A stretch of DNA of 52,613 bases from Anaerolineales bacterium (lineage in GTDB: Bacteria; Chloroflexota; Anaerolineae; Anaerolineales; UBA4823). The stretch lies in contig JACUUU010000001.1 of assembly GCA_014859065.1 (NCBI GenBank), positions 1-52,613 on the forward strand, given 5' to 3'. The number at the start of each line of letters is the position of its first letter. Position 1 is the stretch's first letter. The translations under genes and the position numbers were made by a program. Under the pieces are notes generated by a model. It did no database searches. It was not told the origin of the DNA and saw only the letters and a program-made list of their open reading frames with translations. This document shows positions 7,917 through 23,300 of the stretch, piece by piece.

Positions 7917-9761
7917 TTATGCCAACAAGCGCTGGTGCGTGGTGCGCATACAGGTGTCCATGATTACCTCCAAACCCGCTCGCCAGGCTAACTGGGCAGC
8001 TGCCTCGTTAATGATCCCTTCCTGCATCCATACGACCTTGGCATTAATCTGGATTGCTTGGTCAACGATTTCAGGGACGGCCTCACTCCGTCTGAAGATC
8101 AGGACGATATCGATAGGATCTGGAACAGCGGTTAAATCTGCATAAGCTGGCTCGGATAATAATTCCTTGAACTTAGGATTGACCGGGATGATACGGTATC
8201 CTTTAGATTGAAGGTAAGCAGGGACGCTGTGAGAAGGGCGTTCAGGGTGATCCGTTATCCCGACTACAGCGATGTTGTGACTGTCATTCAGGATTTGGCG
8301 AAGTTTCTCGTCGTTAGGCCTAAGATTATTCATAATGGGGCTCGGTCCTGCCCGTGCTTTTTCGAAGTTTACCGGCAAGATCACCTGGAAACAGGTAAAT
8401 CCTGGCTTGGAGAAAAGTTTGATATCACCTTTGTGTTTGTTGATGATGTTGTAGGTGATATTCAGACCCAGACCAGTACCTTTACCAACCGGTTTGGTGG
8501 TGAAAAATGGGCTGAACACCTTGGACTGGATGTCAGTTGGAATGCCTGGACCGTCATCTTCGATCTCTACAATTACCTCGTCACCATCTCTAGAGGTGCG
8601 GATTGTAATCTCACCTTTGCCATCCATGGCTTGGATTGAGTTATCGATAATGTTGGTCCAGACTTGATTTAGTTCACTGCCATAAGCTAGGATGGGTGGC
8701 ATGTCACTGGCGTATTGGCGCAGGACGTTGACGCCCTGTTTGAGTTTACTGCGCAGCATGACCAGCGTGTTATCCAGGCTTTCGTGCAGGTCGATTTCTT
8801 GGATGGGAGCCTGGTCGAGATAAGAGTAGGACATGAGGGATTTTACAATATCTGTAATTCTGGAGGCACCCTGGGAGATTTCCTCCAATAACGAATAGGT
8901 GTTGTAAATCTTTCCCAGCCATGAGACGATAACGGGCAGCTGTTGGGGGGAAAATTTCTCAGTCAGAAAATCTAACTGCTCATATTGGTAACCTAGGTTA
9001 ACAAGTGTTGGGGCGATTTCCCAGGCATCCTCGACACCTTTATTTTCCAACCACGCTTCTATCTCGGATTCGCGATCGCTGCGGTTAAGGGAGTTCAAGC
9101 TTTCAGGATTGCTCGAATGTTGCTTAGCGCGCTGATCCAACTCGGCGAGCGTATCCATCTGGCTTTGAGTCAGGTCCGCTTGGATCAGTCCGAGGTTTGC
9201 TTGCTGTAACTGCCCCAGGGATGCCTTTAATTGGTCAGCTCCGCGCTGTGTGGCAGAAGCCGGGTTATTGAGCTCGTGAGCGATCCCGGCAGTGAGTGAG
9301 CCTAACTGGGCCATTTTTTCACTGTCTCGCAAGAGCAATTCGGTGGTTTTCAAGCGGGCTGCTGTCGTGAATACCATAGCACGGGCTGCGGAGGGGCTGG
9401 TATCGAGTAGATGATTGAGATGATCGTGGCTGATGGCCAGCAGTTTGCTGTCGGTCAGCGCTCGGCCGCTGGCGTTGCGGGTAGATGTCTCTAACATAGA
9501 CATCTCTCCGATTACATCTCCCGGTTGGCGGACTGCAAGGTGCACCTTCTTACCGCCAGAGGTCTTGTAGATCTCGATTTGCCCTTCTTTGATTACATAA
9601 GCTTTGTCACCAGGACTGCCTTCAGTGAACAATTCCTCACCAGCATTGAGGTTTATCTCAGCGATCATCTCACTCAGACGCCTTAGATCGTCGTCAGGCA
9701 TACCAGCAAAAAACGGGATTTTTTTCAAGAATTCATACATTTTCAAGCCTGTGTGATCCAA
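7917..9761 (-). CDS. Sensor histidine kinase: cyclic-nucleotide-binding domain + HisKA/HATPase + C-terminal CoA-binding (YccU-like) domain
   Basis: cNMP-binding fold (FTEGSPGDKAYVIKEGQIEIYK...GDVIGEMS). H-box GIAHELNNPASA. ATPase N/G boxes (WTNIIDNSIQAM, DDGPGIP, GKGTGLGL). The C-terminal 125 aa (NIAVVGITDHPERPSHSVPAYLQSKGYRIIPVNP...VWMQEGIINEAAAQLAWRAGLEVIMDTC) aligns by eye with E. coli YccU-type CoA_binding_2 proteins. Confidence 0.9.
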   Translation of the reverse strand: MDHTGLKMYEFLKKIPFFAGMPDDDLRRLSEMIAEINLNAGEELFTEGSPGDKAYVIKEGQIEIYKTSGGKKVHLAVRQPGDVIGEMSMLETSTRNASGRALTDSKLLAISHDHLNHLLDTSPSAARAMVFTTAARLKTTELLLRDSEKMAQLGSLTAGIAHELNNPASATQRGADQLKASLGQLQQANLGLIQADLTQSQMDTLAELDQRAKQHSSNPESLNSLNRSDRESEIEAWLENKGVEDAWEIAPTLVNLGYQYEQLDFLTEKFSPQQLPVIVSWLGKIYNTYSLLEEISQGASRITDIVKSLMSYSYLDQAPIQEIDLHESLDNTLVMLRSKLKQGVNVLRQYASDMPPILAYGSELNQVWTNIIDNSIQAMDGKGEITIRTSRDGDEVIVEIEDDGPGIPTDIQSKVFSPFFTTKPVGKGTGLGLNITYNIINKHKGDIKLFSKPGFTCFQVILPVNFEKARAGPSPIMNNLRPNDEKLRQILNDSHNIAVVGITDHPERPSHSVPAYLQSKGYRIIPVNPKFKELLSEPAYADLTAVPDPIDIVLIFRRSEAVPEIVDQAIQINAKVVWMQEGIINEAAAQLAWRAGLEVIMDTCMRTTHQRLLA

Positions 9762-9779: not shown

Positions 9780-11426
9780 TTATTGATGAATCAAAGCGAC
9801 TGCCATAGCACCTTCGCCAACCGCAGTGGCAACTCGTTTTATTGAGTGCTGGCGGACGTCGCCAGCCGCGAAGACGCCGGGGATGCTAGTCTCTAGAAAG
9901 AATGGGTCGCGTTTTAGAGTCCATCCCTTAGGACGTTTACCATCTTTGAGCAAATCCGTTCCGGTGATGATGAAACCTGTGCGGTTGCGTTCGACCAGGC
10001 CAGAAACGAGATCAGTAGGGGGCACTGCTCCAATGAAGATGAACAAGGCTGCTGCTGGATATTCCCGTATGGAGTTGCTGTCGATGTTCCGTAAATGGAT
10101 CTGTTCCAGGCGCCCATTGCCATTTACCTCTTCTACGACTGTGCGCGTCAGCACCTCAATATTGGGTGTGGAGGCGATCTGGTCTACCAGGTATTGCGAC
10201 ATACCCTTAGCAATAGAGCTGGCTCTGACTACTATGGTGACCTTGCGGGCGTAACGAGAAAAGTACATGGCTGCTTGACCGGCTGAGTTCGCCCCGCCTA
10301 CCACAAACACGTCTTGATCGCGGTAGTTAGCCGCTTCTGTCAACGCGGCACCATAGTAAACGCCGGCTCCGGTGAGGGTTGCAACCCCTGGTGCATCCAG
10401 GTGGCGAACATTGACACCGGTAGCCAGCAGGATTACGTGAGACGCCAGTTCGCTTCCATCGCTGAGTTGGACGTATCGGTATGGGTCTTCGATACGGATG
10501 CCAACAGCTTCCTCGGCAGTCAAGATCTCCACTCCGAAGCGTTTAGCTTGGGTGGTTGCCCGCCGGGCTAAGTCTGCCCCGCTCAACCCTTTTGGAAAAC
10601 CCAGATAATTCTCGATGCGAGAACTGGTGCCAGCTTGACCGCCAGTTGCCTCTTTTTCGATCATCACGGTACGCAACCCCTCGGAGCCTGCATAAACGGC
10701 AGCAGCCAACCCGGCTGGCCCAGCGCCGATGATGGTCAAGTCATAGAATGGCTGAGAGGCTTTATTGTAGAGGCCAGTTTTCTCAGCCAGGATACGGAGA
10801 TCCGGTTTTATCAATGCAGTCCCATCCTGGAAAAAGACAACCGGTATCTGGAATTTCTCCTCGCTGACACTTTCAACTAATTGGCGAGCTTCATGATCGC
10901 TATCGATATCGAGCCACAAGTATGGGATTTGGTTGCGCGCCAGGAAATCTTTCACGGTATGGCTGTGAGCAGACCAAAGGGTGCCTGCAACGCGGATGCC
11001 ATCGTAAGGCAGGGGGACGGTCGAAAGCCAATCGCTTAATAAATCCTCCAACACTGGGTAGAGGTTATCTTCTGGAGGTTCCCAGGGCTTCATTAGATAA
11101 TAGTCAAGTTCGATCTCGTTTATGCCCTTGATGGCTACTTCCGTGTCGGCATAAGCAGTCAGCAGGACTTTGCGAGCCTGAGGATAATATTTGACCGCTT
11201 CACTCAAGAATTGTATACCGGTCATGTTGGGCATACGTTGGTCTACCAAGAAAAGTGCCAACGGGGAATTACGCTGTTTGAGGCTTTTGACTGTTTCTAA
11301 AGCTTCGCTGCCCGAGGTTGATTTAACATAACGATAGTCGCTTTTGAAATGTTGACGAAGATCACGTTCGACTGCATTGAGCACCTGGGGCTCATCATCG
11401 ACCAGCATGATTACAGGTTTTGCCAT
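9780..11426 (-). CDS. Response-regulator receiver fused to a thioredoxin/glutaredoxin-like domain and a thioredoxin-reductase-like FAD/NAD(P) flavoprotein; contains no cysteine
   Basis: The REC domain is complete (MLVDDEP, FLVDQRMPNMTG, LLTAY, YLMKPW). The middle Trx-like fold has WSAHS where WCxxC is expected. The TrxR-like part has IIGAGPAGLAAA, VVGGANSAGQAA and GVFAAGDV, but YGAALTEA where CATCDG is expected. Confidence 0.9.
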   Translation of the reverse strand: MAKPVIMLVDDEPQVLNAVERDLRQHFKSDYRYVKSTSGSEALETVKSLKQRNSPLALFLVDQRMPNMTGIQFLSEAVKYYPQARKVLLTAYADTEVAIKGINEIELDYYLMKPWEPPEDNLYPVLEDLLSDWLSTVPLPYDGIRVAGTLWSAHSHTVKDFLARNQIPYLWLDIDSDHEARQLVESVSEEKFQIPVVFFQDGTALIKPDLRILAEKTGLYNKASQPFYDLTIIGAGPAGLAAAVYAGSEGLRTVMIEKEATGGQAGTSSRIENYLGFPKGLSGADLARRATTQAKRFGVEILTAEEAVGIRIEDPYRYVQLSDGSELASHVILLATGVNVRHLDAPGVATLTGAGVYYGAALTEAANYRDQDVFVVGGANSAGQAAMYFSRYARKVTIVVRASSIAKGMSQYLVDQIASTPNIEVLTRTVVEEVNGNGRLEQIHLRNIDSNSIREYPAAALFIFIGAVPPTDLVSGLVERNRTGFIITGTDLLKDGKRPKGWTLKRDPFFLETSIPGVFAAGDVRQHSIKRVATAVGEGAMAVALIHQ

Positions 11427-11834: not shown

Positions 11835-13754
11835 ATGAAACTCACCAGCATCCGAGCAAGGATGGGCTTGCTATTTTTGGCTTTCACCCTTCTCGTAGCA
11901 ATATCAGCCGGAGCAACACTTTGGGGAGTTGAGGCTCAAAAGACTGACGCCCTGGTTGTAAACCTGGCGGGACGTCAGCGGATGTTGGTTCAGCAGATGA
12001 CCCGCCTGGCACGGGAGATTGAATCAGGTAGTGGAGATGGTCAGCGTTTGCTGCTGCTGGAGTCTGTTGAAACCTTTGAACAGACCCAGCAAGCTTTGCG
12101 GTTTGGAGGTCAAGCACCTTACATTCAAAGTCAAAGGGTATATCTTCCCCAAACCCGAGATTTAAATATACAGGATCAATTAGAACTTGTTTCTACTTTG
12201 TGGGTCGATTTTCGCCGCTCGATTGATCTCATCCTCTCTTCCACGCCAGAAAGCGCGACATATCTCAGTGCATTGCATAATATGGAGAGTTCTGCATCAA
12301 TGCTCGCTGCGGAAACGGATGTGGCTGTACGTATGTTTGAGTCAGCTTCAGCGCGGAAGTTGGTAAAAATTCGTTGGGTGCAAGCCGGCTTTCTAGTAAG
12401 TGCGCTATCACTGCTTGTGGTGGGATTTGTGATTACCCATCGATCTATAATAAAGCCGTTGAGAGGATTGGAGGAATCCACGAACCGCATTCGCAGTGGA
12501 GATTTAGATACACCGGTACGGGTTACCGGACCTGATGAAATAAATCTACTTGGGGGAAGTTTTGAATCTATGCGGGTTCAAATGAAAGAAGCTCGCCTTG
12601 AGCTGCAGAATTGGACCAATACACTGGAGAATCGGGTAGATCAACGAACTGAGGAATTAAATGCACTTTTCCAGGTTAGCCGAGAGATTTCATCCCGGCT
12701 GGAGATTGGGCATGTACTTGATTCGGTAACTACCAAGGCTGGAGAACTGCTCAAAGCGGAGGCGGCGTTTTTGTGTCTTCTGGACGAGGAGGGCAGTCAG
12801 TTAACTTTACATTCTGCCAGTGGCCCAAACGAATCTGTTCTGCAACCCAGGACATCAGCGAGGGAATCTGTAGCTGGAAAGGTGCTTGGCGGTTTGACAG
12901 CTTTACCGTGTGGAGTAGATGGTTGTTTTGGTGTGTGCAGCATCATGGCTGAGCCTCTTCAGGCGAGTCACTTGGCTGCACCTTTGCGGGTGCGTGACCG
13001 GGTGATTGGGGCACTATGTGTCGGCAGCTCCCAGACTGAAGCTTTCAATGATGAGTCAGCATTACTACTGGCGAGGTTAGCCAACTCAGCCGCAATTGCT
13101 TTGGAGAATGCCCGTCTGTATGCTGAAGCGGAACGGTTAGGTATTTTGGAAGAACGCCAGCGGATCGCAGCTGAGATGCATGATGGATTGGCTCAAACGA
13201 TAAGCTATTTGCACATCCATGTTGATTTGGCACGCGAGCAGGTCGAAAAAGGTCAATCAAAGTTGGCTATAGATACCCTGAACCAAGTCGAGTCTGTCAT
13301 GGGACAGGGTTTGGTAGAAATTCGGCGGGCTATTGATAGTTTACATGTGGAAACGCCCTTGCGTTTTACCTTGCAAGAACAACTATCAGAGATCGTTCAG
13401 GAATTTACTACTACAAACACAGGTGTATTCTGGCAAACAAATACTGTAACCCCTTTGGTCTTGTCTAATGAGCAAGGTGAACAGGTACAAAGGATTGTAC
13501 GTGAAGCTTTGACAAATGCGATTCGACATGCTGGAGCTCAACGGATCTCGGTGCGGTTAGAAAGTGTTAATGAGAAAATCCGGATTATTATTGATGATGA
13601 TGGTTGTGGTTTTGACCCAAATAAAATAACGTCAAGTGATGGGCAGCTTCACTTTGGCTTGAAGATCATGCGCGCACGTGCCAGTCGGGTAGGAATTCAG
13701 TTAAACATCATTTCCACTTTAGGTGAAGGTACACGAGTAATATTGACTTTATGA
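11835..13754 (+). CDS. NarX-like sensor histidine kinase (PilJ/NarX-type periplasmic sensor, HAMP, GAF, HisKA_3, HATPase)
   Basis: TM1 followed by a P-box-like LAGRQRMLVQQMTRLA, then TM2 and HAMP. GAF-like region. HisKA_3 H-box ERQRIAAEMHDGLAQT. ATPase boxes (REALTNAIRHA, DDDGCGF, GLKIMRARA). The ORF opens at TTG 11826; ATG 11835 is preferred. Confidence 0.85.
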   Translation: MKLTSIRARMGLLFLAFTLLVAISAGATLWGVEAQKTDALVVNLAGRQRMLVQQMTRLAREIESGSGDGQRLLLLESVETFEQTQQALRFGGQAPYIQSQRVYLPQTRDLNIQDQLELVSTLWVDFRRSIDLILSSTPESATYLSALHNMESSASMLAAETDVAVRMFESASARKLVKIRWVQAGFLVSALSLLVVGFVITHRSIIKPLRGLEESTNRIRSGDLDTPVRVTGPDEINLLGGSFESMRVQMKEARLELQNWTNTLENRVDQRTEELNALFQVSREISSRLEIGHVLDSVTTKAGELLKAEAAFLCLLDEEGSQLTLHSASGPNESVLQPRTSARESVAGKVLGGLTALPCGVDGCFGVCSIMAEPLQASHLAAPLRVRDRVIGALCVGSSQTEAFNDESALLLARLANSAAIALENARLYAEAERLGILEERQRIAAEMHDGLAQTISYLHIHVDLAREQVEKGQSKLAIDTLNQVESVMGQGLVEIRRAIDSLHVETPLRFTLQEQLSEIVQEFTTTNTGVFWQTNTVTPLVLSNEQGEQVQRIVREALTNAIRHAGAQRISVRLESVNEKIRIIIDDDGCGFDPNKITSSDGQLHFGLKIMRARASRVGIQLNIISTLGEGTRVILTL

Positions 13755-14410
13755 ACAAGATAACGATATTGCTTGCTGACGATCACAATCTTTTTCGAGA
13801 AGGTCTGGCTGGAATTCTTAATTCTCAACCTGATATGCAGGTTATCGGTCAAGCAAACGATGGTTTGGAAGCCATTCTAATGGCTGAGGATCTGAAGCCT
13901 GACCTGGTATTGATGGATATACAGATGCCTGGTTGCGATGGTTTGGAGGCAACTCGTAAGATCAAGAACGAAATTCCTAAGACAGTGGTAGTGATGCTGA
14001 CTGTGCGAGATGAGGATGAGAAGCTATTTGAGGCGATCAAGTTTGGCGCTCAGGGTTACTTATTGAAGAGTATCCGTTCAAGGGAGATGTTAGATATGGT
14101 GCGAGGTGCGATGCGAGGAGAGGCTGCCATATCACCCAGATTAGCGAGCCGGATGCTAGATGAATTTCGCCGCATGAGCAGAATATTGCCTGCCCAATCC
14201 GATGATGATATCGTTGATCTAACCCTACGTGAGCAGGAGGTTCTCGCTCTCGCAGCTTCTGGAGCCGCGGACAAAGAGATTGCCAGCAGTTTGAATATCA
14301 GCCTGGCAACAGTTAAGACTCATATGCGTAATATTCTAGCTAAACTTCAGGTCAACAGTCGCCGCGAGGCAGCTAGGGAAGCAAAGCGGAGAGGTTTGTT
14401 GGGATTCTAA
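13751..14410 (+). CDS. NarL/FixJ-family response regulator (REC + LuxR-type HTH)
   Basis: ILLADDH, DLVLMDIQMPGCDG, GAQGYLLKS. C-terminal LTLREQEVLALAASGAADKEIASSLNISLATVKTHMRNILAKL. The start ATG overlaps the kinase stop (ATGA). Confidence 0.9.
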   Translation: MNKITILLADDHNLFREGLAGILNSQPDMQVIGQANDGLEAILMAEDLKPDLVLMDIQMPGCDGLEATRKIKNEIPKTVVVMLTVRDEDEKLFEAIKFGAQGYLLKSIRSREMLDMVRGAMRGEAAISPRLASRMLDEFRRMSRILPAQSDDDIVDLTLREQEVLALAASGAADKEIASSLNISLATVKTHMRNILAKLQVNSRREAAREAKRRGLLGF

Positions 14411-14476
14411 TACCAATTTAAATAGTTTGGTGATAGAATAATAATAACTGTCAATCAGATTTGCGTGTGTAGCTTT

Positions 14477-14513
14477 GCCGCTGGTCTGCTGGATAAGGCC
14501 AGCGGAAATTTTT
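14477..14513 (+). terminator. Possible intrinsic terminator after the NarL-like gene
   Basis: CCGCTGG (14478-14484) pairs with CCAGCGG (14499-14505), followed by AAATTTTT. Confidence 0.4.
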
Positions 14514-14551
14514 CACCACGGATCTACCACTTATTTAGGAGAAAAAGAAGA

Positions 14552-14890
14552 ATGGAAAAGAAATTGTATGTTGGGAATCTGTCTTACAACACCACTGAGG
14601 CAGAGTTACGTGATTTATTCAGTCAGGCTGGCGAGGTGGCATCCGTGGAGCTGATCAAAGATCGAGAAACGGGTAGGTCAAAAGGTTTTGCGTTCGTTGA
14701 AATGAGCAGTCAGAGTGAGGCTGAAAAAGCGATCAGCACATTTAACAGCTATAACCTGGATGATCGTGTAATAAAGGTCAATTTAGCAAGACCTCGGGAG
14801 GAGCGACCTCGAGGGGGGGGTTGGTACAAAGATTCCTCATCTAGAAGGTCTTCGAACCGCGGACGGCGCGATAGAGATCGTCGAAACTAA
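14552..14890 (+). CDS. RRM-type RNA-binding protein with an Arg/Gly/Ser-rich tail
   Basis: RNP-2 KLYVGNL and RNP-1 KGFAFVEM. AGGAG at 14538-14542 precedes ATG 14552. The upstream part of the ORF (from 14465) has no RBS and no homology signal. Confidence 0.9.
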   Translation: MEKKLYVGNLSYNTTEAELRDLFSQAGEVASVELIKDRETGRSKGFAFVEMSSQSEAEKAISTFNSYNLDDRVIKVNLARPREERPRGGGWYKDSSSRRSSNRGRRDRDRRN

Positions 14891-14898
14891 TCCTTTGA

Positions 14899-14931
14899 TA
14901 AAAAACCCGCCATACTAGGTGGGTTTTTTCA
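14899..14931 (+). terminator. Rho-independent terminator after the RRM gene
   Basis: AAAAAACCCGCC-ATACTA-GGTGGGTTTTTT: a GC-rich stem (one G-U pair) followed by a T-run. Confidence 0.7.
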
Positions 14932-14953
14932 AAATAAATATCGTTCTTTTTTC

Positions 14954-14978
14954 ATCCCTCTTTGATATCAAGAGGGAT
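14954..14978. other. Perfect 9-bp inverted repeat (ATCCCTCTT-N7-AAGAGGGAT) upstream of the pseudo-receiver gene; second terminator or operator
   Basis: The arms are 14954-14962 and 14970-14978, centred on GATATC, 35 nt upstream of ATG 15013. Confidence 0.5.
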
Positions 14979-15012
14979 TACTTTTGGTTGGGAAAGTTGT
15001 TAATATCATTTT

Positions 15013-15390
15013 ATGGAGGAAGTCAGACGTTATCAACGGGTGCTTCTGCTATGTGATCTCCAACTTTTAGGTGAATCCTTAGAACACCTGATGAGTAGTA
15101 TTGCTGAGATAGAAATTGTTGCTTCCTGGTTGATTTCTCAAACTGACCCGAAGAGGATCAAGGAACACGCACCCGATTTAGTGATTATCGCTGAAGGTGA
15201 TTCATCCACTGAGGAGACCAACCTTTTGGCTGCTGATATCTTGGGTTCATATCCTGATTTATCTGTAATACGGATTAAGCTCTCTCAAAACGTTTTTCAT
15301 ATTTACACCTCACAAGTGTTTGCAGCCGATCATTCCCATTTAATCGAGGCTATAAGGCGAATGTGCCTGCGAACAAACAAGATTGTCTGA
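15013..15390 (+). CDS. Small receiver-like (pseudo-receiver) protein, function unknown
   Basis: The alternating beta/alpha pattern resembles CheY (RVLLLCD ... EIVASW ... DLVIIAEGD ... LSVIRIK), but the acidic pocket and phospho-acceptor Asp context are not canonical. It ends 14 nt before the molybdoenzyme alpha gene. Confidence 0.5.
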   Translation: MEEVRRYQRVLLLCDLQLLGESLEHLMSSIAEIEIVASWLISQTDPKRIKEHAPDLVIIAEGDSSTEETNLLAADILGSYPDLSVIRIKLSQNVFHIYTSQVFAADHSHLIEAIRRMCLRTNKIV

Positions 15391-15404
15391 TAAGGAGTTT
15401 GCCT

Positions 15405-18400
15405 ATGTCATCAATGTCGCGTCGTGAATTTTTCAAACTATCTGGGATCGCTGCGTTGGGTCTAGCTATGTCACAAATGGATTTGAATCTGCTCGATCCA
15501 ATTAACGTTACGAATCCTTTAGATGTTTATCCAGACCGTGATTGGGAGAGGGTTTATCGAGATCAATATCGCTATGACACATCCTTTACTTATGTCTGCT
15601 CTCCAAATGACACCCATGCCTGCCGCATGCGGGCATTTGTGCGCAATGGGGTTATTCTACGGTCAGAAACAAACTATGATGTGGAGCGATACAGCGATCT
15701 ATATGGAAATAAAGCCACAGCTCACTGGCATCCACGCGGCTGCAAGAAGGGGATGACATTTCACCGGCGTATCTATGGACCTCACCGGTTGAAGGGACCT
15801 CTAATGCGTAAGGGTTGGAAGGAATGGGCTGATGATGGCTTCCCGGATTTAGATGCCGAAAATAAAGCAAAATATAAATTCGACTCACGGGGACTGGATG
15901 ATCTTCTTCCAGTCTCCTGGGAGACGGCGTATGACTACATTGCCAGAGGGATGGTCGCAATTGCTCAGCGATACTCTGGTGAACAGGGGGCTGACAGGTT
16001 GCGTGCCCAAGGTTATCCTGAAGAAATGATCACTGAGGTGGGAGGTGCTGGTACCCGGACCTTCAAGTGCCGGGGTGGAATGGGTTTGTTGGGTGTGATC
16101 GGAAAATACGGAATGTATCGTTTTGCCAACTCATTGGCACTTCTCGACCAGAATGTACGAGGAATTGAGAAGGAACAGGCATTAGGTGGGCGAACATGGT
16201 CTAACTACACCTGGCATGGTGACCAGGCTCCGGGACACCCATTCGTGACCGGTTTGCAAGCCTCTGACGAGGATTTCAATGATTTGCGCAACTCAAGGCT
16301 GCATATCGGGTGTGGGAAAAACCTGGTTGAAAATAAGATGCCCGAATCCCACTTCTTTATTGAAGCCATGGAAAGAGGGGCAAAGATCGTGACCATCACT
16401 CCCGAATATTCACCTCCGGCAACAAAAGCTGATTATTGGATCCCGATCAGGCCTGCTACGGACACCGCCCTTTTCTTAGGAATAACTCGTTGGATGATGG
16501 ACAATGAGAAATACAATACTGAATTTGTAAAACGGTTTACAGATTTTCCGCTGCTAGTACGTTTGGATACCCTCGAACGGCTGCGAGCTGAGCATGTATT
16601 TCCGAATTACCAACCAGGTCTTGACCTTGAAGGTCCCAGCTTTAAGCTGCAGGGACTTACCCAGGAACAGTACACCAGGCTGGGGGACTATGTTGTTCGC
16701 GACCAACAAACAGGTGAACTTGCTTCTATTACTCGAGATGATGTTGGGGAAAATCTGGAAGTCAGAGGTCTTGACCCCCAATTGGAATGGTCCGGCAGTG
16801 TCAGGTTAATAGACGGAAGAGAAGTCGAGGTAATCACTCTTTGGTCGATGTACCGCGAGCATCTTGAGGATTATGATCTGGACACTGTAGCTGAAATTAC
16901 ACATGCGCCGAAAAGTATGATCGAGCAGCTGGCAAATGACATCGCCACCCTCAGCCCGGTAGCTATTCATATTGGGGAGGGGATCAACCATTGGTTCCAT
17001 GCCACCCTGGCAAACCGGGCACAATTCTTACCGCTGATGCTAACGGGTGATATCGGCAAGCCCGGTGCTGGCTGCTACACCTGGGCTGGGAATTATAAAG
17101 CCGCAGTCTTTCAGGGATCACCCACTAGTGGGCCTGGTTTCAAGGGGTGGGTAGGTGAAGACCCCTTTGAACCAAATCTGGATCCACAAGCACATGGAAA
17201 AGATATTAGCACTCATTTCTTTACCAAGGATGAAGAACCAGCTTATTGGAACCACTCTGAGCGTCCGTTGATTGTTGACACACCTGAATTCGGGCGGAAG
17301 GTCTTCACTGGTCAAACCCACATGCCCACTCCGACCAAGGTTCAATTCTTCACTAATGTCAACCTGTTGAATAATGCCAAACACCACTACGAGATGATCA
17401 AAAATGTCAATCCCAACATCGAATTAATCATCGCAGTGGATATCGAGATGAATTCTTCGGTCGAATACGCAGACTTCGCGCTGGCAGCAAATTCTTGGGC
17501 TGAGTTTGAAACCTATGAGATAACAGCCTCGTGCTCTAACCCATTCTTGCAGATTTGGAAGGGTGGTATTCCACCTATATACGACACACGTGACGATTCT
17601 CGAATTCTGGCTGAAGTGGCTGCCGCGATTGGGGATACCATTGGTGATCGACGCTTCCGGGAGCATTGGAAATTTATCCTGGAAGGTAAACCTGAAGTTT
17701 ATATCCAACGCTTACTCGATTCATCGATAACAACCAGCGGGTACCAGTTCGATGATATCGTCAGTGGAAAATTTGGAGAGCCTGGTGCTGCTTTAATGCT
17801 TTTCCGAACCTACCCGCGCATTCCCTTCTGGGAACAGGTTCATGATTCAGTCCCCTTTTATACAGACACTGGTCGGCTTAACTCCTACAGTGACATCCCG
17901 GAAGCTATTGAATATGGTGAGAATATCATCAGTCACCGCGAAAGCCCTGAAGCCACCCCGTTCCTGCCTAATGTTATCGTCTCCACCAGCCGGTTTATTC
18001 GCCCCGAGGATTACGGAGTTCCTAGCGATCATATGGGTTGGGATGAACGAACTATACGCAACATTGCGATGGCTTGGGATGAAGTTAAAAGGACTTCTAA
18101 CCCTCTCTGGGAGCAAGGCTATCATTTTTACTGCCTGACCCCCAAGACACGTCACCGGGTCCATTCCTCCTGGAGCACTGTAGATTGGACCATAATTCTG
18201 GACTCGAACTTTGGAGACCCATACCGCATGGACAAACGCCTGCCTGGTGTCGGAGATCACCAACTGCATATGAATCCTCAAGCAGCCATGGATCTAGGAA
18301 TTGAAGATGGCGATTACGTATACGTGGATGCCAACCCAGCTGACAGACCCTATGTTGGGTGGAAGCCTGAAGATGCCTTTTACAAAGTTGCCCGGCTTAT

Positions 18401-18842
18401 GCTGCGAGTGAAGTTCAACCCTGCTTATCCTTACCATATTGTTATGCTCAAACATGGACCCTTCATGGCTACTGAGAAGTCCGTGTTAGCGCATGAGACC
18501 CGTCCAGATGGGCTGGCAAAATCAGCCGGTTCAGGTTATTTGGCCAACCTGAGGTATGGTTCGCAACAATCGATTACTCGCGATTGGTCGATGCCTATGC
18601 ACCAGACGGATACCCTATTCCACAAGCAGAAAGCAGGGATGCAGTTTATCTTTGGTGGTGAGGCTGATAACCACGCCATTAACACAGTTCCCAAAGAAAC
18701 ACTGGTGAAGATCGTAAAAGCTGAGGACGGCGGTCTGAACGGTGAAGGCAAGTGGGAGCCATCTCAAACTGGATTCACCCCAGGGCACGAGAGTGAGTTC
18801 ATGCGCCGTTACTTGAATGGTGAAAATGTTGAAGTTGATTAA
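15405..18842 (+). CDS. Tat-exported molybdopterin oxidoreductase alpha subunit, type II DMSO-reductase family (NarG/NxrA-like, periplasmic clade)
   Basis: AAGGAG RBS at 15392-15397, then ATG 15405. Twin-arginine signal SRREFFKLSGIAALGLAMS. FS0 motif C-x3-D-x3-C (CSPNDTHAC) plus a downstream PRGCKKG. The segment NYTWHGDQAPGHP resembles NarG FYDWYCDLPPASP. Length is 1145 aa. Confidence 0.88.
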   Translation: MSSMSRREFFKLSGIAALGLAMSQMDLNLLDPINVTNPLDVYPDRDWERVYRDQYRYDTSFTYVCSPNDTHACRMRAFVRNGVILRSETNYDVERYSDLYGNKATAHWHPRGCKKGMTFHRRIYGPHRLKGPLMRKGWKEWADDGFPDLDAENKAKYKFDSRGLDDLLPVSWETAYDYIARGMVAIAQRYSGEQGADRLRAQGYPEEMITEVGGAGTRTFKCRGGMGLLGVIGKYGMYRFANSLALLDQNVRGIEKEQALGGRTWSNYTWHGDQAPGHPFVTGLQASDEDFNDLRNSRLHIGCGKNLVENKMPESHFFIEAMERGAKIVTITPEYSPPATKADYWIPIRPATDTALFLGITRWMMDNEKYNTEFVKRFTDFPLLVRLDTLERLRAEHVFPNYQPGLDLEGPSFKLQGLTQEQYTRLGDYVVRDQQTGELASITRDDVGENLEVRGLDPQLEWSGSVRLIDGREVEVITLWSMYREHLEDYDLDTVAEITHAPKSMIEQLANDIATLSPVAIHIGEGINHWFHATLANRAQFLPLMLTGDIGKPGAGCYTWAGNYKAAVFQGSPTSGPGFKGWVGEDPFEPNLDPQAHGKDISTHFFTKDEEPAYWNHSERPLIVDTPEFGRKVFTGQTHMPTPTKVQFFTNVNLLNNAKHHYEMIKNVNPNIELIIAVDIEMNSSVEYADFALAANSWAEFETYEITASCSNPFLQIWKGGIPPIYDTRDDSRILAEVAAAIGDTIGDRRFREHWKFILEGKPEVYIQRLLDSSITTSGYQFDDIVSGKFGEPGAALMLFRTYPRIPFWEQVHDSVPFYTDTGRLNSYSDIPEAIEYGENIISHRESPEATPFLPNVIVSTSRFIRPEDYGVPSDHMGWDERTIRNIAMAWDEVKRTSNPLWEQGYHFYCLTPKTRHRVHSSWSTVDWTIILDSNFGDPYRMDKRLPGVGDHQLHMNPQAAMDLGIEDGDYVYVDANPADRPYVGWKPEDAFYKVARLMLRVKFNPAYPYHIVMLKHGPFMATEKSVLAHETRPDGLAKSAGSGYLANLRYGSQQSITRDWSMPMHQTDTLFHKQKAGMQFIFGGEADNHAINTVPKETLVKIVKAEDGGLNGEGKWEPSQTGFTPGHESEFMRRYLNGENVEVD

Positions 18843-18861
18843 TCGCTAAAGTGAGTATGAT

Positions 18862-19116
18862 ATGCCAAAAGACGAATTTGTTGTGGAAGACCCAATGGAA
18901 CTGGTAGGGATGGTTATGCCAGGAAATGAAGATGACCTGGAAATGATGGCGGAGTGCATTGTGGATGAATATATCCGATTGGGTTGGGGTGAGGAGCGCC
19001 TGATGAATCTGTTTACCAATCCGATGTTCTTAGGAACGCACCGAATTTATCGCTATAAAGGCGAAGATTACGTGCGCGACTTGATCCAAAGAACCAAACT
19101 GCGGTGGCATCCATGA
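18862..19116 (+). CDS. Hypothetical small acidic protein (84 aa) between the alpha and beta genes
   Basis: An uninterrupted ORF fills the alpha-beta gap on the same strand. There is no signal peptide and no recognisable motif. The RBS is weak. Confidence 0.5.
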   Translation: MPKDEFVVEDPMELVGMVMPGNEDDLEMMAECIVDEYIRLGWGEERLMNLFTNPMFLGTHRIYRYKGEDYVRDLIQRTKLRWHP

Positions 19117-19209
19117 TATCTCTAACGAGGAATGATACAAATATTCAGCCATCTGCAGAGTTTTTCCAGCTAAAAAAACAAAAGGTAAAAGAATTCAGAT
19201 TGTGGAGAG

Positions 19210-20475
19210 ATGACTATGCCTGAAGTATACAACTGGCAACTTGGTCGCAACATGGATTACGCGTTCGAAGAGGCGCATCCGGAAAAACAGTTTGTTGCCG
19301 TCTTCAATATTAACCGCTGTATCGGCTGCCAAACCTGCACTGGGGCATGCAAGGCTACGTGGACATTCTCAAAAGGGCAGGAATATATGTGGTGGAATAA
19401 CGTTGAGACCAAGCCCTACGGAAGCTACCCGCAGCATTGGGACATAAAAATTTTACAGAAGCTGGATGAGGCACATGAAGCCGCAAATGTGAAATCAAGC
19501 TGGGACACAAGTCAGCTCAGCGAGCATGCGCCCTATGGTGTCTATAATGGAATGACAATCACAGAAGCTGCTGGGCTGAATGAACAAGCGCTTGGGTATT
19601 TGCCAGAGGACAAAGAGTGGCGCGCTCCAAATTTTTATGAGGACACCTCCACAGCATTCCAGGGAGACAACTTGGGATTGAGCACCGAAGGCGCCTCTTT
19701 ACCTGAACACCAGACGTGGTTCTTTTACTTACAGCGAATATGCAATCACTGTAGTTACCCTGCTTGTGCGGCGGCTTGTCCGCGCAAAGCGATCTATAAA
19801 AGACCTGAGGACGGAATTGTTTTGATCGACCAGGCACGCTGCCGTGGATATCGAAAATGTGTCGAACAATGTCCCTATAAAAAATCGATGTACAGGTCGA
19901 CCACTCGCACCAGTGAAAAATGTGTTGCCTGTTATCCACGTGTTGAGGGGAAAGACCCCTTGTTCGAAGGCGTTCCTATGGAAACCCGTTGTATGACCGT
20001 TTGTCCGGGAAAAATCCGTCTCAATGGGCTGGTTGACATAGCTCCGGATGGTGCCTGGATGGAAGATCGATACAACCCGATATATTATCTGGTGATGGTC
20101 GAAAAAATTGCCTTGCCGTTGTATCCACAATTTGGCACCGGGCCGCACGTTTATTATATTCCTCCCCGTTGGGCACCGCGTCCATACCTGCGCCAGATGT
20201 TTGGGCCGGGAGTGGATGAGGCTATAGCCAGGTACACGGCGCCTTCCAGGGAACTATTAGCCGTTCAGCAGCTTTTCCGGACCACTCAACGGATGATCTT
20301 CCGTTATGAGATCGAGGAAGGACCCTTGGTTCTGGAAACTGAGATCAACGGGCAACCCTGGCAAATGTATGACGATGTAGTCATTGGCTACGATGCAAAA
20401 GGTCAGGTAGCTTCACGGTTGAGTGTTATTGAGCCTTTACATGAACGACCACCAGAAAGGTTGAATTCGATATGA
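19210..20475 (+). CDS. Fe-S beta subunit (NarH/NxrB-like, four-cluster ferredoxin)
   Basis: Cys groups CIGCQTCTGACK, CNHCSYPACAAACP, CRGYRKCVEQCP and CVACYPRVEG. GGAGAG RBS upstream. No signal peptide, consistent with Tat hitch-hiking. Confidence 0.9.
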   Translation: MTMPEVYNWQLGRNMDYAFEEAHPEKQFVAVFNINRCIGCQTCTGACKATWTFSKGQEYMWWNNVETKPYGSYPQHWDIKILQKLDEAHEAANVKSSWDTSQLSEHAPYGVYNGMTITEAAGLNEQALGYLPEDKEWRAPNFYEDTSTAFQGDNLGLSTEGASLPEHQTWFFYLQRICNHCSYPACAAACPRKAIYKRPEDGIVLIDQARCRGYRKCVEQCPYKKSMYRSTTRTSEKCVACYPRVEGKDPLFEGVPMETRCMTVCPGKIRLNGLVDIAPDGAWMEDRYNPIYYLVMVEKIALPLYPQFGTGPHVYYIPPRWAPRPYLRQMFGPGVDEAIARYTAPSRELLAVQQLFRTTQRMIFRYEIEEGPLVLETEINGQPWQMYDDVVIGYDAKGQVASRLSVIEPLHERPPERLNSI

Positions 20476-21185
20476 ACCCAGAAATTGCAATCCGAAATGC
20501 TCAAGTCTATCGTTTCTTGGCTGATGCATTAATTTATCCTCAATACAATTGGCTGGAAAACCTCGCCTCATTAAACAGGATTTTTCACGAACTTGGTTTA
20601 CCAGAACTCGAGGTAAACGCAAACCCGGTAGATTTACCATCTCTTCAATCAGAACACCGGCAAATTTTTGGCTTGACAGGTTCTTTATGTTATGAAACTG
20701 AATTCGGTTTACCTCATGAATTTCGACAGGTTCAAGAGCTGGCTGATATCACTGGCTTTTACCAAGCATTTGGATTTAAATTAGGCGGAAGTGTGCGTGA
20801 ACGGCCCGATCACATAGCAGTAGAGGTGGAGTTCATGCATCTACTGGCACTTAAGGAAGCGTATGCAATTTCCAATGGGACGAAGGAACAGGTAGAGACC
20901 TGTATCGATGGTCAAAAAAATTTCCTAAAGGAACACCTGGGTCGATGGATTGGGTTGTTTTCCCAGGCTGTATGCCTCAACCAGAATAATCAGGGAAGTG
21001 AGATGCCTTATTTTGAGGCGGAAAAAGACGTTTATCCAAAAATCGTTACTTGTGCAGCAGCTTTCGTCGAATATCATGCCAAGAATTTGGGATTGAAAAT
21101 TGAACCTCCGCAGCTTTCTGAAGTTCGTCCTACTCCTCTGGGAGCAGACTTATCCTGTGGTGAATGTCAAGTCGCAGGACATTAG
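20472..21185 (+). CDS. TorD/NarJ-family redox-enzyme maturation chaperone (delta)
   Basis: Shows the family-typical PDHIAVEVEFMHLLALKE segment. The start overlaps the beta stop (ATGA). Its position between beta and gamma matches Ebd/Ser/Ddh/Nxr-type clusters. Confidence 0.75.
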   Translation: MNPEIAIRNAQVYRFLADALIYPQYNWLENLASLNRIFHELGLPELEVNANPVDLPSLQSEHRQIFGLTGSLCYETEFGLPHEFRQVQELADITGFYQAFGFKLGGSVRERPDHIAVEVEFMHLLALKEAYAISNGTKEQVETCIDGQKNFLKEHLGRWIGLFSQAVCLNQNNQGSEMPYFEAEKDVYPKIVTCAAAFVEYHAKNLGLKIEPPQLSEVRPTPLGADLSCGECQVAGH

Positions 21186-21298
21186 AATGAATTGCTGAGG
21201 CACATATGACTGGCAAATTGCCACTCATATACCAAGCAAAGTCTTGACCTTGGAGGCGGAGGTTATCTGTTGAGTTCAAACCTGACTGGAGTAACACT

Positions 21299-22330
21299 AT
21301 GAATAAAAGATTTCTCTTTTTCATGATCACATTACTTGTCGCTGGGGTTCTCACATTTCTGAAAATCCCATTGGCCAGCTCGCAGGGGTTAACATTGGTG
21401 CCAGCATTGGTTACAGATGATTTGCCGATAAAGGATCCATCCTCTGATTTGTGGCAGACCACAACAGCAGTCACGGTGCCGTTGAGCGCCCAGAATATAA
21501 CCAAGCCCATTTCAGTCGAAACGAACGTACGCGAGGTAGTTGCGAGAGCACTCCAAAGCGAAGATACTCTCGCAATCATGCTCGAATGGGTTGACCAAAC
21601 CCCAAATGACTCTGTCGTGAGGGTGCAGGATTTTTCGGATATGGCTGCACTCCAGTTTTCTCTCAGTGATGGACAACCATTTTTCTGTATGGGACAGGAA
21701 GGAGGTGACGTAAATATTTGGGCATGGAAGGCAGATTGGCAATCTGATTTGTTGGCATGGCAAGATCTGGAAGACGTCTATGAAACGATGTATGTGGAGC
21801 AGTACCCATTCACTCAGGTAGAAGGAGATCAACAGCCTGGACCAGGGGATTATATCGAGACCGCCTATTTACCAGCCTTAGAGGTCGGAAACCTTGTTGC
21901 CGTACCCGGTCGAGGGACACCGGTAGAGAATTTGGTGGCAGGTGGGTTTGGAACTCTGACAGCGCTACCAGTCCAGCAACAAACGATCCAAGGCTATGGG
22001 GAATGGGCAGATGGTAAATGGCGTGTAATATTCTCGCGCCAGCTGAATGTTGACACATCTAAAGAGGTGAACTTTGAACCAGGAAGAATGTATTCCTTGG
22101 CGATTGCTGTATGGGATGGTGAGTTTGGGGAGCGAAATGGGCAGAAATCCACTTCACAGTGGTTATCTATGCAAGTGACCAGTGAACTTCCTGCCCGTCC
22201 ACCTGCAGCGGTTGAACCTGCAGCCATGCCATGGTGGCGCTCGGCTGAAATAGTTGGTTTTATTTTGGTTGGGGGAGTAGTTTTATTGCTGATAATTGGC
22301 GCGATCATCTATTTGCGTCTCCCTGAATGA
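21299..22330 (+). CDS. Gamma subunit candidate: Sec-exported ethylbenzene-dehydrogenase-gamma-like (haem b) domain with a C-terminal TM anchor
   Basis: Signal peptide MNKRFLFFMITLLVAGVLTFLKIPLASSQG. Beta-rich domain with features like LSIAVWDGEFGERNGQKSTSQW. C-terminal helix IVGFILVGGVVLLLIIGAIIYL. Confidence 0.65.
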   Translation: MNKRFLFFMITLLVAGVLTFLKIPLASSQGLTLVPALVTDDLPIKDPSSDLWQTTTAVTVPLSAQNITKPISVETNVREVVARALQSEDTLAIMLEWVDQTPNDSVVRVQDFSDMAALQFSLSDGQPFFCMGQEGGDVNIWAWKADWQSDLLAWQDLEDVYETMYVEQYPFTQVEGDQQPGPGDYIETAYLPALEVGNLVAVPGRGTPVENLVAGGFGTLTALPVQQQTIQGYGEWADGKWRVIFSRQLNVDTSKEVNFEPGRMYSLAIAVWDGEFGERNGQKSTSQWLSMQVTSELPARPPAAVEPAAMPWWRSAEIVGFILVGGVVLLLIIGAIIYLRLPE

Positions 22331-22340
22331 GGAGGATACG

Positions 22341-23300
22341 ATGAAATACCCCTTGTTTTTCCTCCCTTGGTTAGTCACAGCTGCTTTATTCGAATGGTTG
22401 GTGGTGCGCACTCTAACCCGCCTGGCGATTTTCATGCCAAAATCAGATCTCATCACATCAATTTACAGATCTCTGACAAGTATCGGGAATCTGGCTTCTA
22501 CCCTGAGTGCGGTTCTGGTCATGGCTGCTCTGATTTGGATAATCTGGAAATCTTTTCGTCCAGATAGTTTGCATATAGCAGCTCTGATTTGGATGAGTGC
22601 GCTGGCGTTGAACCTGATCTTCCTGGTATTGCCAGGAGTGGGTGTCCTCGCGGTCGTATTTCAGGTTTTTATGCTGCTGGCGGTGATTGTAGTCGGTTGG
22701 CGCGCAATCTCTACTGCATCAGAAAGCCCTCAAAAGTTCTCTATTTTGATTCCGGTATTGGCGCTTGTTTGCGGCCGGCTATACCAGATCTTCCCGTTGG
22801 CATATGAAGCCTTTGGTTTGCCTGGTCCTGTGCTTTTTTCTGGATTTCTCTTTAATGCAGGAGAATTGTTCGTGGTTGCCAGCTCCTTCATTTTGTGGTG
22901 GACATACGCACGGAAAGCGCCTTTGAGCAGCTATATAATGGCTTTAATACCGGTGTTGGCTTTCACTGGTTTACGTTTAATGAACCCTTCCATGGCTGGT
23001 ATTCTTTCAATTTGGTCAATGGGATTGACCCTTTACCTGCCCTGGCCGTTGTATGCGATTAGCCTGTGGTTGGCAGTTGTTGTAGTCTTAGCGAATATCA
23101 ATCAAGATCGACATGTAGCTGTGGCGGTGATTTTATTAGCTGCTGGTGGGTATGCTCCACAGCTCACCACACAAGCTTTCTATGGGTTGGTTGCATTATG
23201 GTGTTTTATGCTGGATGAAAGGTGGGTAAAAAATGAGGCTGATGTGGATTTTGACAATTCGCTTCAATTGGAGCGCGCCTTCAATTCAAAGATGAGCTAA
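22341..23300 (+). CDS. Polytopic membrane protein (about 9-10 TM), unknown function, coupled to the gamma gene
   Basis: GAGGAGG RBS at 22329-22335 and ATG at 22341, 10 nt after the gamma stop. The protein is hydrophobic throughout. Only two intramembrane His candidates are seen (SLHIAAL, DRHVAVAV). Confidence 0.7.
   Translation: MKYPLFFLPWLVTAALFEWLVVRTLTRLAIFMPKSDLITSIYRSLTSIGNLASTLSAVLVMAALIWIIWKSFRPDSLHIAALIWMSALALNLIFLVLPGVGVLAVVFQVFMLLAVIVVGWRAISTASESPQKFSILIPVLALVCGRLYQIFPLAYEAFGLPGPVLFSGFLFNAGELFVVASSFILWWTYARKAPLSSYIMALIPVLAFTGLRLMNPSMAGILSIWSMGLTLYLPWPLYAISLWLAVVVVLANINQDRHVAVAVILLAAGGYAPQLTTQAFYGLVALWCFMLDERWVKNEADVDFDNSLQLERAFNSKMS

Follow-up and report, generated by a model that had tools for sequence, protein, structure and literature searches.

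An outward-facing nitrate/nitrite oxidoreductase cluster of the NXR clade with NarXL-like regulators and a membrane-anchored gamma subunit in an Anaerolineales genome

The DNA analysed here, referred to as the window, is a stretch of 52,613 nucleotides (contig JACUUU010000001.1 of assembly GCA_014859065.1, forward strand) from a metagenome-assembled genome (MAG) of an Anaerolineales bacterium. Between 11.8 and 23.3 kb it carries a gene cluster, called nxr below, in which a pair of NarX/NarL-like regulators precedes a molybdoenzyme with a signal for the twin-arginine translocation (Tat) pathway. The evidence supports assigning the putative enzyme to the nitrate/nitrite oxidoreductases of the 'periplasmic NXR' (nitrite oxidoreductase) clade of the type II dimethyl sulfoxide reductase family, which comprises the enzymes of Nitrospira, Nitrospina and the anammox bacteria. 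NXR is used for this sequence clade alone and would not imply a physiological nitrite oxidoreductase. A first-pass annotation, made from the letters of the DNA, had proposed a cluster of this type in a Chloroflexota-like host. All the genes that it listed are found in place on the plus strand, Pfam and NCBIfam searches agree with its domain calls, and the host is indeed an Anaerolineales MAG, the alpha subunit being 100% identical to MBE0408105.1 ('Anaerolineales bacterium').

The catalytic subunit (15405-18842, +) is an NxrA-type protein of 1145 amino acids predicted to hold molybdenum bis(molybdopterin guanine dinucleotide) and the [4Fe-4S] cluster FS0. It matches the alpha subunit of the Kuenenia enzyme, NXR-A (7b04_B), over its full length (residues 18-1159) with 1784 bits, and gives partial matches elsewhere, to PcrA (182 bits), EbdA (169 bits) and NarG (125 bits). 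Identity to Kuenenia NXR-A is 62.5% over 955 residues, the reference being residues 3-961 rebuilt from a printed alignment, with a numbering that reproduces the residues named in the structure paper (PMC8387239). Six functional residues listed in that paper are identical in the window: the FS0 ligands C67, D71, C75 and C115, the molybdenum ligand Asp275, and the substrate-coordinating Asn70, whose position is occupied by Ile in EbdA. These six are kept in 81-91 of 91 aligned alpha sequences. The N-terminus, MSSMSRREFFK (MSSMSRREFFKLSGIAALGLAMS), contains the twin-arginine motif SRREFFK announced by the first-pass annotation; it can be read directly from the sequence, and the Pfam family TAT_signal (PF10518) is annotated on some alpha homologues. 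The active site had been called periplasmic on this basis. An outward-facing site remains the appropriate prediction, with the location better worded as the outer face of the cytoplasmic membrane.

The NxrB-type iron-sulfur subunit (19210-20475, +; 421 amino acids) is devoid of a signal peptide. It aligns over its full length with Kuenenia NXR-B (7b04_A, 601 bits), against 198 bits for EbdB, 189 for PcrB and 168 for NarH, and all the Cys motifs of the four Fe-S clusters are kept in the alignment to 7b04_A. The NCBIfam subfamily models TIGR03479, TIGR03478 and TIGR03477 match all three structural subunits, with 245 bits for TIGR03478 on beta; the EbdA model reaches 169 bits on alpha where its cut-off is 2000. 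The subunit sizes had been judged NXR-like, and this holds against the lengths of the solved alpha/beta chains (1148/410 amino acids for NXR, 899/333 for PcrA/B, 976/352 for EbdA/B and 1247/512 for NarG/H). Membership in the NarGHI group is contradicted by the Tat motif, by the partial nature of the NarG and NarH matches and by the lack of an encoded NarI-like protein. Scores of 169-198 bits, compared with 601-1784 for NXR, and sizes of 1145/421 amino acids likewise speak against the Ebd/Ser/Clr/Pcr/Ddh branch. Clustering with Ebd, Ser, Clr or Pcr, or a differing active site, had been named in advance as grounds for abandoning the proposal; NXR is the best match and the ligands are kept, so the assignment to the 'periplasmic NXR' clade stands.

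The phylogeny of the alpha subunit leads to the same group. At E ≤ 1e-50 the protein database contains over 2,200 relatives. Among the first 120 the identity is 79-91%, and those with a name are Anaerolineae, Anaerolineales, Thermoflexales or Chloroflexota MAGs; the label given to alpha relatives by JGI is 'nitrate reductase / nitrite oxidoreductase, alpha subunit'. When each GTDB species is represented by a single genome, a scan detects a relative in at least 593 of them, and the rarity implied by the first-pass annotation was thus overrated. Gene neighbourhoods were compared in the 80 best loci by tblastn, BLAST clustering and profile searches. Chloroflexota (Anaerolineae, Caldilineaceae, Ardenticatenaceae and Thermoflexales) account for every one of the 34 closest, which have 74-83% identity, and the Chloroflexota alpha clade has 100/100 bootstrap support in a neighbour-joining tree. 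A next tier at 63-71% identity comprises Methylomirabilota, Armatimonadota, Omnitrophota, Elusimicrobia, Planctomycetota, Binatia and Rokubacteria as well as other Chloroflexota, an Actinomycetes MAG and an archaeon. The wider clade to which these sequences belong includes Kuenenia and again has 100/100 support; the outgroups share 30-47% identity. The tree is distance-based, includes a partial Kuenenia sequence and leaves aside the NxrA of Nitrospira and Nitrospina; its outgroups come from a search of 50%-identity representatives, in which the whole NXR clade is covered by one entry (P0121). Within these bounds, the alpha phylogeny proposed as a check groups the window with the Kuenenia NXR and apart from the more distant type II enzymes.

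The order of genes in the Chloroflexota clade is kinase, regulator, pseudo-receiver, nxrA, o84, nxrB, nxrD, nxrC and mem334. Near the cluster, none of the genes for nir, nrf, nor, oxidase, cytochrome c, bc or alternative complex III functions recurs in the 34 Chloroflexota loci, and no carbon-fixation gene is kept there. The only recurring extra is a protein with an FmdE domain (PF02663, 99 bits) and a C-terminal zinc-ribbon, encoded in eight Chloroflexota loci directly after the mem334 homologue (e.g., L023:18941-19567) and absent from the window. FmdE proteins accompany other molybdo- and tungsto-enzyme operons.

Downstream of the beta gene lie a chaperone and the third structural subunit, both as first described. 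NxrD (20472-21185, +) is a TorD/NarJ-family maturation chaperone (PF02613, 61 bits; TIGR03482, 65 bits under a cut-off of 152). The NxrC-type gamma subunit (21299-22330, +) has the EB_dh fold of a haem-b protein, with 109 bits to PF09459 and 104 bits to 7b04_C; the next-best solved match is EbdC with 43 bits. A signal-like hydrophobic stretch at the N-terminus and a hydrophobic C-terminal helix (19-mer, Kyte-Doolittle 3.03) agree with the earlier description of a Sec-exported gamma subunit with a C-terminal transmembrane anchor, and CxxCH is absent. The haem ligands (Met155/Lys305 in Kuenenia, M131/K283 in the window) are invariant in 60 of 60 homologues.

The gene after nxrC encodes a polytopic membrane protein of 319 amino acids and about ten helices (22341-23300, +; locus tag IBX69_00075), referred to as mem334, a partner that is conserved alongside gamma. 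Searches of Pfam and NCBIfam place it in no family at E up to 10, and its 171 homologues are without exception annotated 'hypothetical'. An AlphaFold2 model with about ten helices (predicted local distance difference test score, pLDDT, 89.6; predicted template-modelling score 0.86) finds no match in the PDB by Foldseek, the best hit having an E value of 0.9 and template-modelling scores staying under 0.31. With no structural neighbour in the PDB, mem334 is without detectable relation to NarI, to NrfD/PsrC or to other solved anchors. The invariant residues of the family are W19, R23, T24, R27, P33, K34, G174, E175, W186, W225, S226, G228, L231, L233, P234, W235, Y238, G270, P273 and Q274.

The presence of mem334 follows the type of gamma subunit. 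All 25 NxrC proteins of the Chloroflexota clade have a C-terminal transmembrane helix (19-mer Kyte-Doolittle values of 2.25-3.32), and so do those of a second Chloroflexota group (L041, L043 and L051) and the Actinomycetes MAG (L065); the C-terminal 19-mer of a Hydrothermarchaeaceae archaeon (L069) is weaker, at 1.74. The helix is lacking in the NxrC of Methylomirabilota, Omnitrophota, Planctomycetota, Binatia and others, so that among the loci compared an EB_dh gamma with this anchor is limited to Chloroflexota, Actinomycetes and archaeal loci. Profile searches detect the mem334 family in 30 of 30 loci with an anchored NxrC and in none of 28 with a soluble one; the distant members are supported by hhalign (probabilities of 99.8% and 95.6%). 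Carriers span at least four lineages, namely two Chloroflexota clades, the Actinomycetes MAG and the Hydrothermarchaeaceae archaeon. The distribution of c-type haem is the reverse, one or two CxxCH motifs, indicating a fused c-type cytochrome, being present in 25 of 33 soluble NxrC open reading frames and in 0 of 30 anchored ones. In most of the relatives outside Chloroflexota (L030, L035, L040, L046, L049, L052 and others) gamma has about 530-620 amino acids and two CxxCH motifs, consisting of the haem-b EB_dh domain fused to a dihaem cytochrome c, and its gene is often located upstream of nxrA and not downstream. Apparent NxrC-mem334 fusions in L041 and L065 were rejected as artefacts of stop-free reading frames in high-GC DNA; their upstream parts are Arg/Pro/Gly-rich out-of-frame translations with no match to the NxrC profile.

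These patterns make mem334 a candidate membrane partner of the anchored NxrC, possibly a module on the quinone side. A more specific proposal, which we consider possible rather than probable, is that anchored NxrC and mem334 together would form a cofactor-less quinol-oxidising module with a fold absent from the PDB that links NXR-clade enzymes to the quinone pool. Its carriers would be prokaryotes without a closed periplasm (Chloroflexota, some Actinomycetes and an archaeon), and its role would be analogous to that of NarI or NrfD/PsrC, to both of which it would be unrelated.

The cluster can be read as one pathway. NxrA would be matured in the cytoplasm with the help of NxrD, and probably also of the small protein o84, and exported through Tat together with NxrB, which brings four Fe-S clusters and no signal peptide of its own. 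NxrC, with haem b held by Met and Lys, would be exported by Sec and retained by its C-terminal helix; insertion of this helix in the membrane would tether the enzyme to the outer face of the cytoplasmic membrane. Electrons would then pass between the molybdenum site, clusters FS0-FS4 and haem b, and to or from the membrane by way of mem334, a route replacing the cytochrome c route of relatives with a soluble, c-haem-fused NxrC. At the regulatory level, the NarX-like kinase may sense external nitrate and/or nitrite through its P-box and signal to the NarL-type regulator, whose target would be the conserved operator/promoter preceding the operon that contains the pseudo-receiver gene and nxrA.

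The kinase (11835-13754, +, from an ATG; the reading frame opens earlier, at TTG 11826) consists of a first transmembrane helix, an extracytoplasmic four-helix sensor of the PilJ/NarX type with a P-box, a second transmembrane helix, and HAMP, GAF, HisKA_3 and HATPase domains. The sensor scores 53-57 bits with the Pfam PilJ/NarX-type family (PF13675, IPR029095), whose cut-off is 26.6, and HAMP, GAF_3, HisKA_3 and HATPase_c are also matched. The P-box-like string LAGRQRMLVQQM pointed out by the first-pass annotation is present, and the P-box, NLAGRQRML, is invariant in 16 cluster-linked kinase homologues. Among PDB entries the sensor is most similar to the McpN nitrate-binding domain (6gcv_A, E 0.0012), with NLAGRQRMLVQQM aligned to McpN NVAGAQRMLSQKM, and residues G58, A59, R61 and M62 of McpN contact nitrate (PMC6381276). 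The window's N-L-A-G-R-Q-R-M also fits the P-box consensus A-I-N-x-A-G-S-L-R-M with its nitrate-binding core G-x-x-R (PMC8199190), given in a review of NarX architecture that includes a Chloroflexi cluster of such kinases.

The response regulator (13751-14410, +) combines a receiver (Response_reg, 101 bits) with a GerE helix-turn-helix domain (67 bits), as in the NarL/LuxR family. On the NCBIfam equivalog models the kinase scores 173.5 for NarQ and 115.4 for NarX against cut-offs of 553 and 578, and the regulator 173.7 for NarL against 250. With these cut-offs unreached, the pair is NarXL-like and does not represent orthologues of NarX, NarQ or NarL; its architecture and motif agree with the earlier description. 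The pair is linked to the nxr cluster in about 17-18 Chloroflexota loci, in a few of them on its downstream side. From this conserved linkage, together with the conserved DNA element described next, we infer that the sensor binds nitrate and/or nitrite and that the regulators control the adjacent operon.

A candidate promoter/operator of the nxr operon (14944-15012, +) is made up of a T-rich box, an inverted repeat and a -10-like hexamer. The repeat is a perfect 9-7-9 one, ATCCCTCTT-N7-AAGAGGGAT (14954-14978), and the hexamer TAATAT (15001-15006) lies six bases before ATG 15013. A related element, ATC.CTCTTTTTTCAT.CTTTG..CC-N6-ACGGATAG, is found in 18 Chloroflexota loci upstream of the pseudo-receiver gene, in every case on the plus strand and 416-563 nucleotides upstream of nxrA, and has two weak off-target matches in 2.6 Mb; its counterpart in the window is 14944-14978. 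The related Chloroflexota loci also have a GAAYTAGTTC palindrome about 45 nucleotides further upstream and a TAnnnT box 6-10 nucleotides before the start codon. The arrangement suggests a promoter with operator sites, from which a leaderless or near-leaderless transcript may be made. Terminator-like hairpins with T-runs follow the regulator genes (14478-14515, +; a 10-bp stem with seven GC pairs, found by a consensus scan) and an inserted RNA-binding protein gene (14905-14929). E. coli-type NarL heptamers (TACYYMT) are absent upstream of both the operon and the kinase, the background density being 0.65 per kb. A known RNA element such as a molybdenum cofactor riboswitch was considered and rejected, as no Rfam family reaches its gathering score anywhere in the window and matches at E up to 1 are at chance level.

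The two directions that the enzyme could take were both left open by the first-pass annotation, as an NXR or as a periplasmic nitrate reductase working in reverse; its choice of family is borne out and the direction is not decided by sequence. The main direction would probably be, and we say so with restrained confidence, respiratory nitrate reduction, with menaquinol as the electron donor and nitrite as the product, in a bacterial counterpart of the archaeal 'pNar' enzymes. The anchored type lacks c-type cytochrome and is wired into the membrane, which indirectly favours nitrate reduction and makes menaquinone a plausible partner. Nitrite (+0.42 V) cannot reduce menaquinone, whereas menaquinol can donate to nitrate. 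Control of the NarXL type, a hallmark of nitrate respiration, argues in the same direction, as does the lack of any oxidase or carbon-fixation gene travelling with the cluster. The broad clade also includes proven nitrate reducers, e.g., Methanoperedens and Thermogutta (PMC10732223, PMC4683180), and Anaerolineae in anammox reactors are reported as heterotrophs transcribing 'nar' genes, the type of gene not being distinguished (PMC5460018, PMC9942424); both points favour reduction.

Several points weigh against this picture. The sequence does not reveal the direction of catalysis, the nearest relatives with a known character are nitrite oxidisers, and the published 'nar' transcription data are not tied to this type of gene. 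Sensors of the NarX/NarQ type answer to nitrate and nitrite, McpN to nitrate only (PMC6381276, PMC8199190), so that the regulators do not discriminate between the two directions. The family alignment of mem334 has no conserved His or Cys that could hold a cofactor, and its model shows no detectable relation to the NarI or NrfD/PsrC folds in the PDB; the protein could instead be a scaffold or an assembly factor. The counts on which the pairing of NxrC and mem334 is based are not phylogenetically independent. All 80 loci are from MAGs, which leaves the physiology without a cultured organism to anchor it, and the host genome is seen through one contig of 52.6 kb.

The opposite reading, a genuine energy-conserving nitrite oxidoreductase that would make the Anaerolineales host an unrecognised and possibly facultative or mixotrophic nitrite oxidiser, is less likely. 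Nitrite electrons would pass through haem b to a high-potential acceptor or oxidase in the membrane, with mem334 docking the enzyme. The closest characterised enzymes are the NXRs of nitrite oxidisers and anammox bacteria, and the conserved Met/Lys ligation of haem b is of a kind linked to a high potential (PMC8387239). On several occasions, finding NXR-clade genes in a phylum where they were not expected has led to the proposal of new nitrite oxidisers (PMC10732223, PMC11265455, PMC7814187, PMC11009272), and the ability of this type of sensor to respond to nitrite too (PMC6381276, PMC8199190) would suit such a role. However, the 34 Chloroflexota loci keep no c-type cytochrome or oxidase gene in or beside the cluster, and mem334 is without conserved metal or haem ligands. 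Moreover, the known nitrite oxidisers among Chloroflexota (Nitrolancea, Ca. Nitrocaldera and Ca. Nitrotheca) use other types of NXR (PMC10732223, PMC11009272), and the literature presents Anaerolineae as heterotrophs that ferment or respire anaerobically (PMC9942424, PMC5460018). A reversible redox valve resembling the anammox enzyme, with no fixed direction, seems more doubtful. It would reduce nitrate when reductant is in excess and oxidise or detoxify nitrite when oxygen or another acceptor is present. Kuenenia NXR does catalyse both directions (PMC8387239), and relatives are frequent in MAGs from oxic/anoxic interfaces such as anammox and nitritation reactors, sand filters and groundwater, but the oxidative direction would be thermodynamically closed if the partner is menaquinone, and a dedicated substrate-responsive regulation suggests one main use. 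Very improbable is a different substrate, be it chlorate, perchlorate, selenate or a hydrocarbon, as in Pcr, Clr, Ser and Ebd. The superfamily and the plan of subunits are common to these enzymes (type II alpha/beta, EB_dh gamma and TorD-like chaperone), and their three TIGR models match the window's subunits; yet PcrA, EbdA and their beta subunits score three- to ten-fold under NXR, the nitrate/nitrite-coordinating Asn70 is retained where EbdA has Ile (PMC8387239), the linked sensor has a nitrate-binding P-box, and the neighbourhood contains no gene for chlorite dismutase or the like.

Comparison with characterised systems defines what is particular to the window. NXR-ABC of Kuenenia stuttgartiensis (PDB 7B04; PMC8387239) is homologous over the full length of its three subunits (1784, 601 and 104 bits) and shares the Tat signal of alpha, the FS0 cluster with three Cys and one Asp, Asn70, Asp275 and the Met/Lys haem b. 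Its NXR-C is soluble and it forms tubules with the cytochrome c NXR-T in the anammoxosome (PMC8387239). In contrast, the window has a gamma subunit with a membrane helix and a polytopic partner, no NXR-T or other c-type cytochrome, and NarXL-type regulators and a pseudo-receiver attached to the cluster. The periplasmic NXRs of Nitrospira and Nitrospina group with the anammox enzyme in one clade, with about 60% identity to Kuenenia NxrA (PMC8387239). Like the window's enzyme, they have an outward-facing active site and are exported through Tat. Nitrospira nxr genes are associated with sigma-54-type regulation and cytochrome c/bd-like oxidase partners, and are not known to be linked to NarXL or mem334.

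The best functional analogy is provided by the archaeal pNar enzymes (Methanoperedens NarGH-Orf7, Haloferax, and Pyrobaculum NarGHM; PMC4683180), for which nitrate reduction is proven and whose Tat-exported alpha/beta subunits are located outside a cell that has no outer membrane. Their operons encode an EB_dh-type haem-b protein (Orf7) and/or a single-helix anchor (NarM), and membrane partners other than NarI. Methanoperedens NarG groups with the NXR clade (PMC10732223). The window's enzyme would resemble these systems in having an EB_dh gamma with a C-terminal transmembrane helix, the type of envelope of the host being assumed, and differs in the membrane partner, which is mem334 here and a NapH-like protein, Rieske/cytochrome b or NarM in pNar; the archaeal Hydrothermarchaeaceae MAG does have the mem334 family. 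E. coli NarGHI with NarX-NarL/NarQ-NarP has the superfamily and a NarJ-like chaperone in common with the window, and on the side of regulation the same domain order in the kinase, the P-box core G-x-x-R and a regulator with receiver and GerE domains (PMC8199190). NarG, however, is a distant relative (125 bits, partial) that lacks a Tat signal and is oriented towards the cytoplasm, and NarI is a dihaem cytochrome b. EbdABC and PcrAB (PDB 2IVF and 4YDD) have the type II architecture, Tat export, an EB_dh gamma with Met/Lys ligation and a TorD-like chaperone; they differ by their low scores (169-198 bits), shorter subunits, the Ile substrate residue in EbdA and a soluble gamma.

The catalytic core is ordinary: the clade is well populated and already annotated in hundreds of public genomes, and NXR-clade genes in phyla that are not nitrifiers are a known theme (PMC10732223, PMC11265455, PMC7814187, PMC11009272). 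What appears to be undescribed in the searchable literature is the module of anchored gamma and mem334 and its complementarity with the cytochrome-c-fused gamma, as well as o84, the pseudo-receiver and the conserved operator. No description of an anchored gamma with a membrane protein was found, the cluster being lumped under narG/nxrA, although coverage was incomplete and this negative is weak evidence. Metagenome surveys score genes of this clade as 'nxrA' or 'narG', readings that imply opposite nitrogen fluxes. Anaerolineae and Caldilineae with this cluster are abundant in aquifers and in anammox and wastewater systems; depending on the direction and wiring of the enzyme, they would either supply anammox bacteria with nitrite or be their competitors for it. 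The split between a soluble, cytochrome-c-fused gamma and an anchored gamma with mem334 offers a sequence criterion for two physiological types, and mem334 is a concrete candidate for the missing membrane partner of outward-facing NXR/Nar enzymes. If the quinol-module proposal is true, the common Chloroflexota 'narG/nxrA' of anammox reactors, wastewater and groundwater would be a distinct bacterial outward-facing nitrate reductase, and the link between periplasmic NXR-type enzymes and the membrane would become testable.

The cluster also contains three small genes. Between nxrA and nxrB lies o84 (18862-19116, +), a conserved protein of 84 amino acids overlooked by the first-pass annotation. 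It keeps this position in 73 of 80 loci from many phyla, carries the invariant motif DP..LVG...P....MA...EE..R.G, and is annotated 'hypothetical' in 101 of 101 database entries; no Pfam or NCBIfam family matches at E up to 10. Its AlphaFold2 model (pLDDT 81) has an acidic disordered N-terminus, where DP..LVG...P is found, and a four-helix domain, for which Foldseek retrieves nothing better than E 7 from the PDB. Since o84 has no signal peptide and is conserved beside a Tat substrate, we infer a cytoplasmic accessory for assembly and maturation or for proofreading. Directly upstream of nxrA, o125 (15013-15390, +; 125 amino acids) is a stand-alone pseudo-receiver without the phospho-acceptor Asp. 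No Pfam or NCBIfam model matches it at E up to 10, and hhalign aligns its family with the receiver domains of the linked regulators (probability 96%, E 2.7e-9). The family occupies this place in 14 loci, with Ala at the phospho-acceptor position in 13 of the 14 members. The third gene (about 14552-14890, +) encodes an RNA-binding protein of the RNA recognition motif type (Pfam RRM_1, 88 bits; NCBIfam NF058537 'RNA-binding regulator', 104 bits with a cut-off of 100) with a tail rich in Arg, Ser, Gly and Asp. This gene separates the regulators from the nxr operon, a position at which it occurs in 0 of 80 related loci, and is thus outside the conserved cluster and unique to this contig.

The cluster is flanked by housekeeping genes (DnaE, SecA, Prs, Fpg, RecJ, MeaB and TyrRS), and its G+C content of 0.45-0.49 is uniform and the same as in the flanks. 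Both features indicate chromosomal DNA with no obvious island, and a recent horizontal acquisition of the cluster was rejected on these grounds. G+C rises to 0.56-0.59 at the ends of the contig (1-4000 and 46000-50000), compared with 0.45-0.50 in the intervening 40 kb; the G+C-rich ends cover DnaE (71-4081) and a gene for a family-B DNA polymerase (45734-48223), and could reflect gene-to-gene variation, foreign DNA or a chimera of assembly or binning. Directly upstream of the kinase and divergent from it are two unusual signalling fusions. One (9780-11426, -) joins a receiver and a glutaredoxin-like segment to a thioredoxin-reductase-type pyridine nucleotide-disulfide oxidoreductase, and the other (7917-9761, -) a cyclic nucleotide-binding domain, a HATPase kinase core and a CoA-binding domain; neither is kept beside the nxr cluster in the 80 loci compared. 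A cupin gene and a DUF166 gene come after the cluster. SecA (29399-33562, -) is unusually long at 1387 amino acids, and its DEAD and wing/scaffold domains each give two matches that lie apart from one another, which suggests that large segments have been inserted. Near the end of the contig, among small unassigned reading frames, an HNH endonuclease gene (51220-51741, +; PF01844, 57 bits) adjoins TyrRS and a gene of the metallo-beta-lactamase fold.

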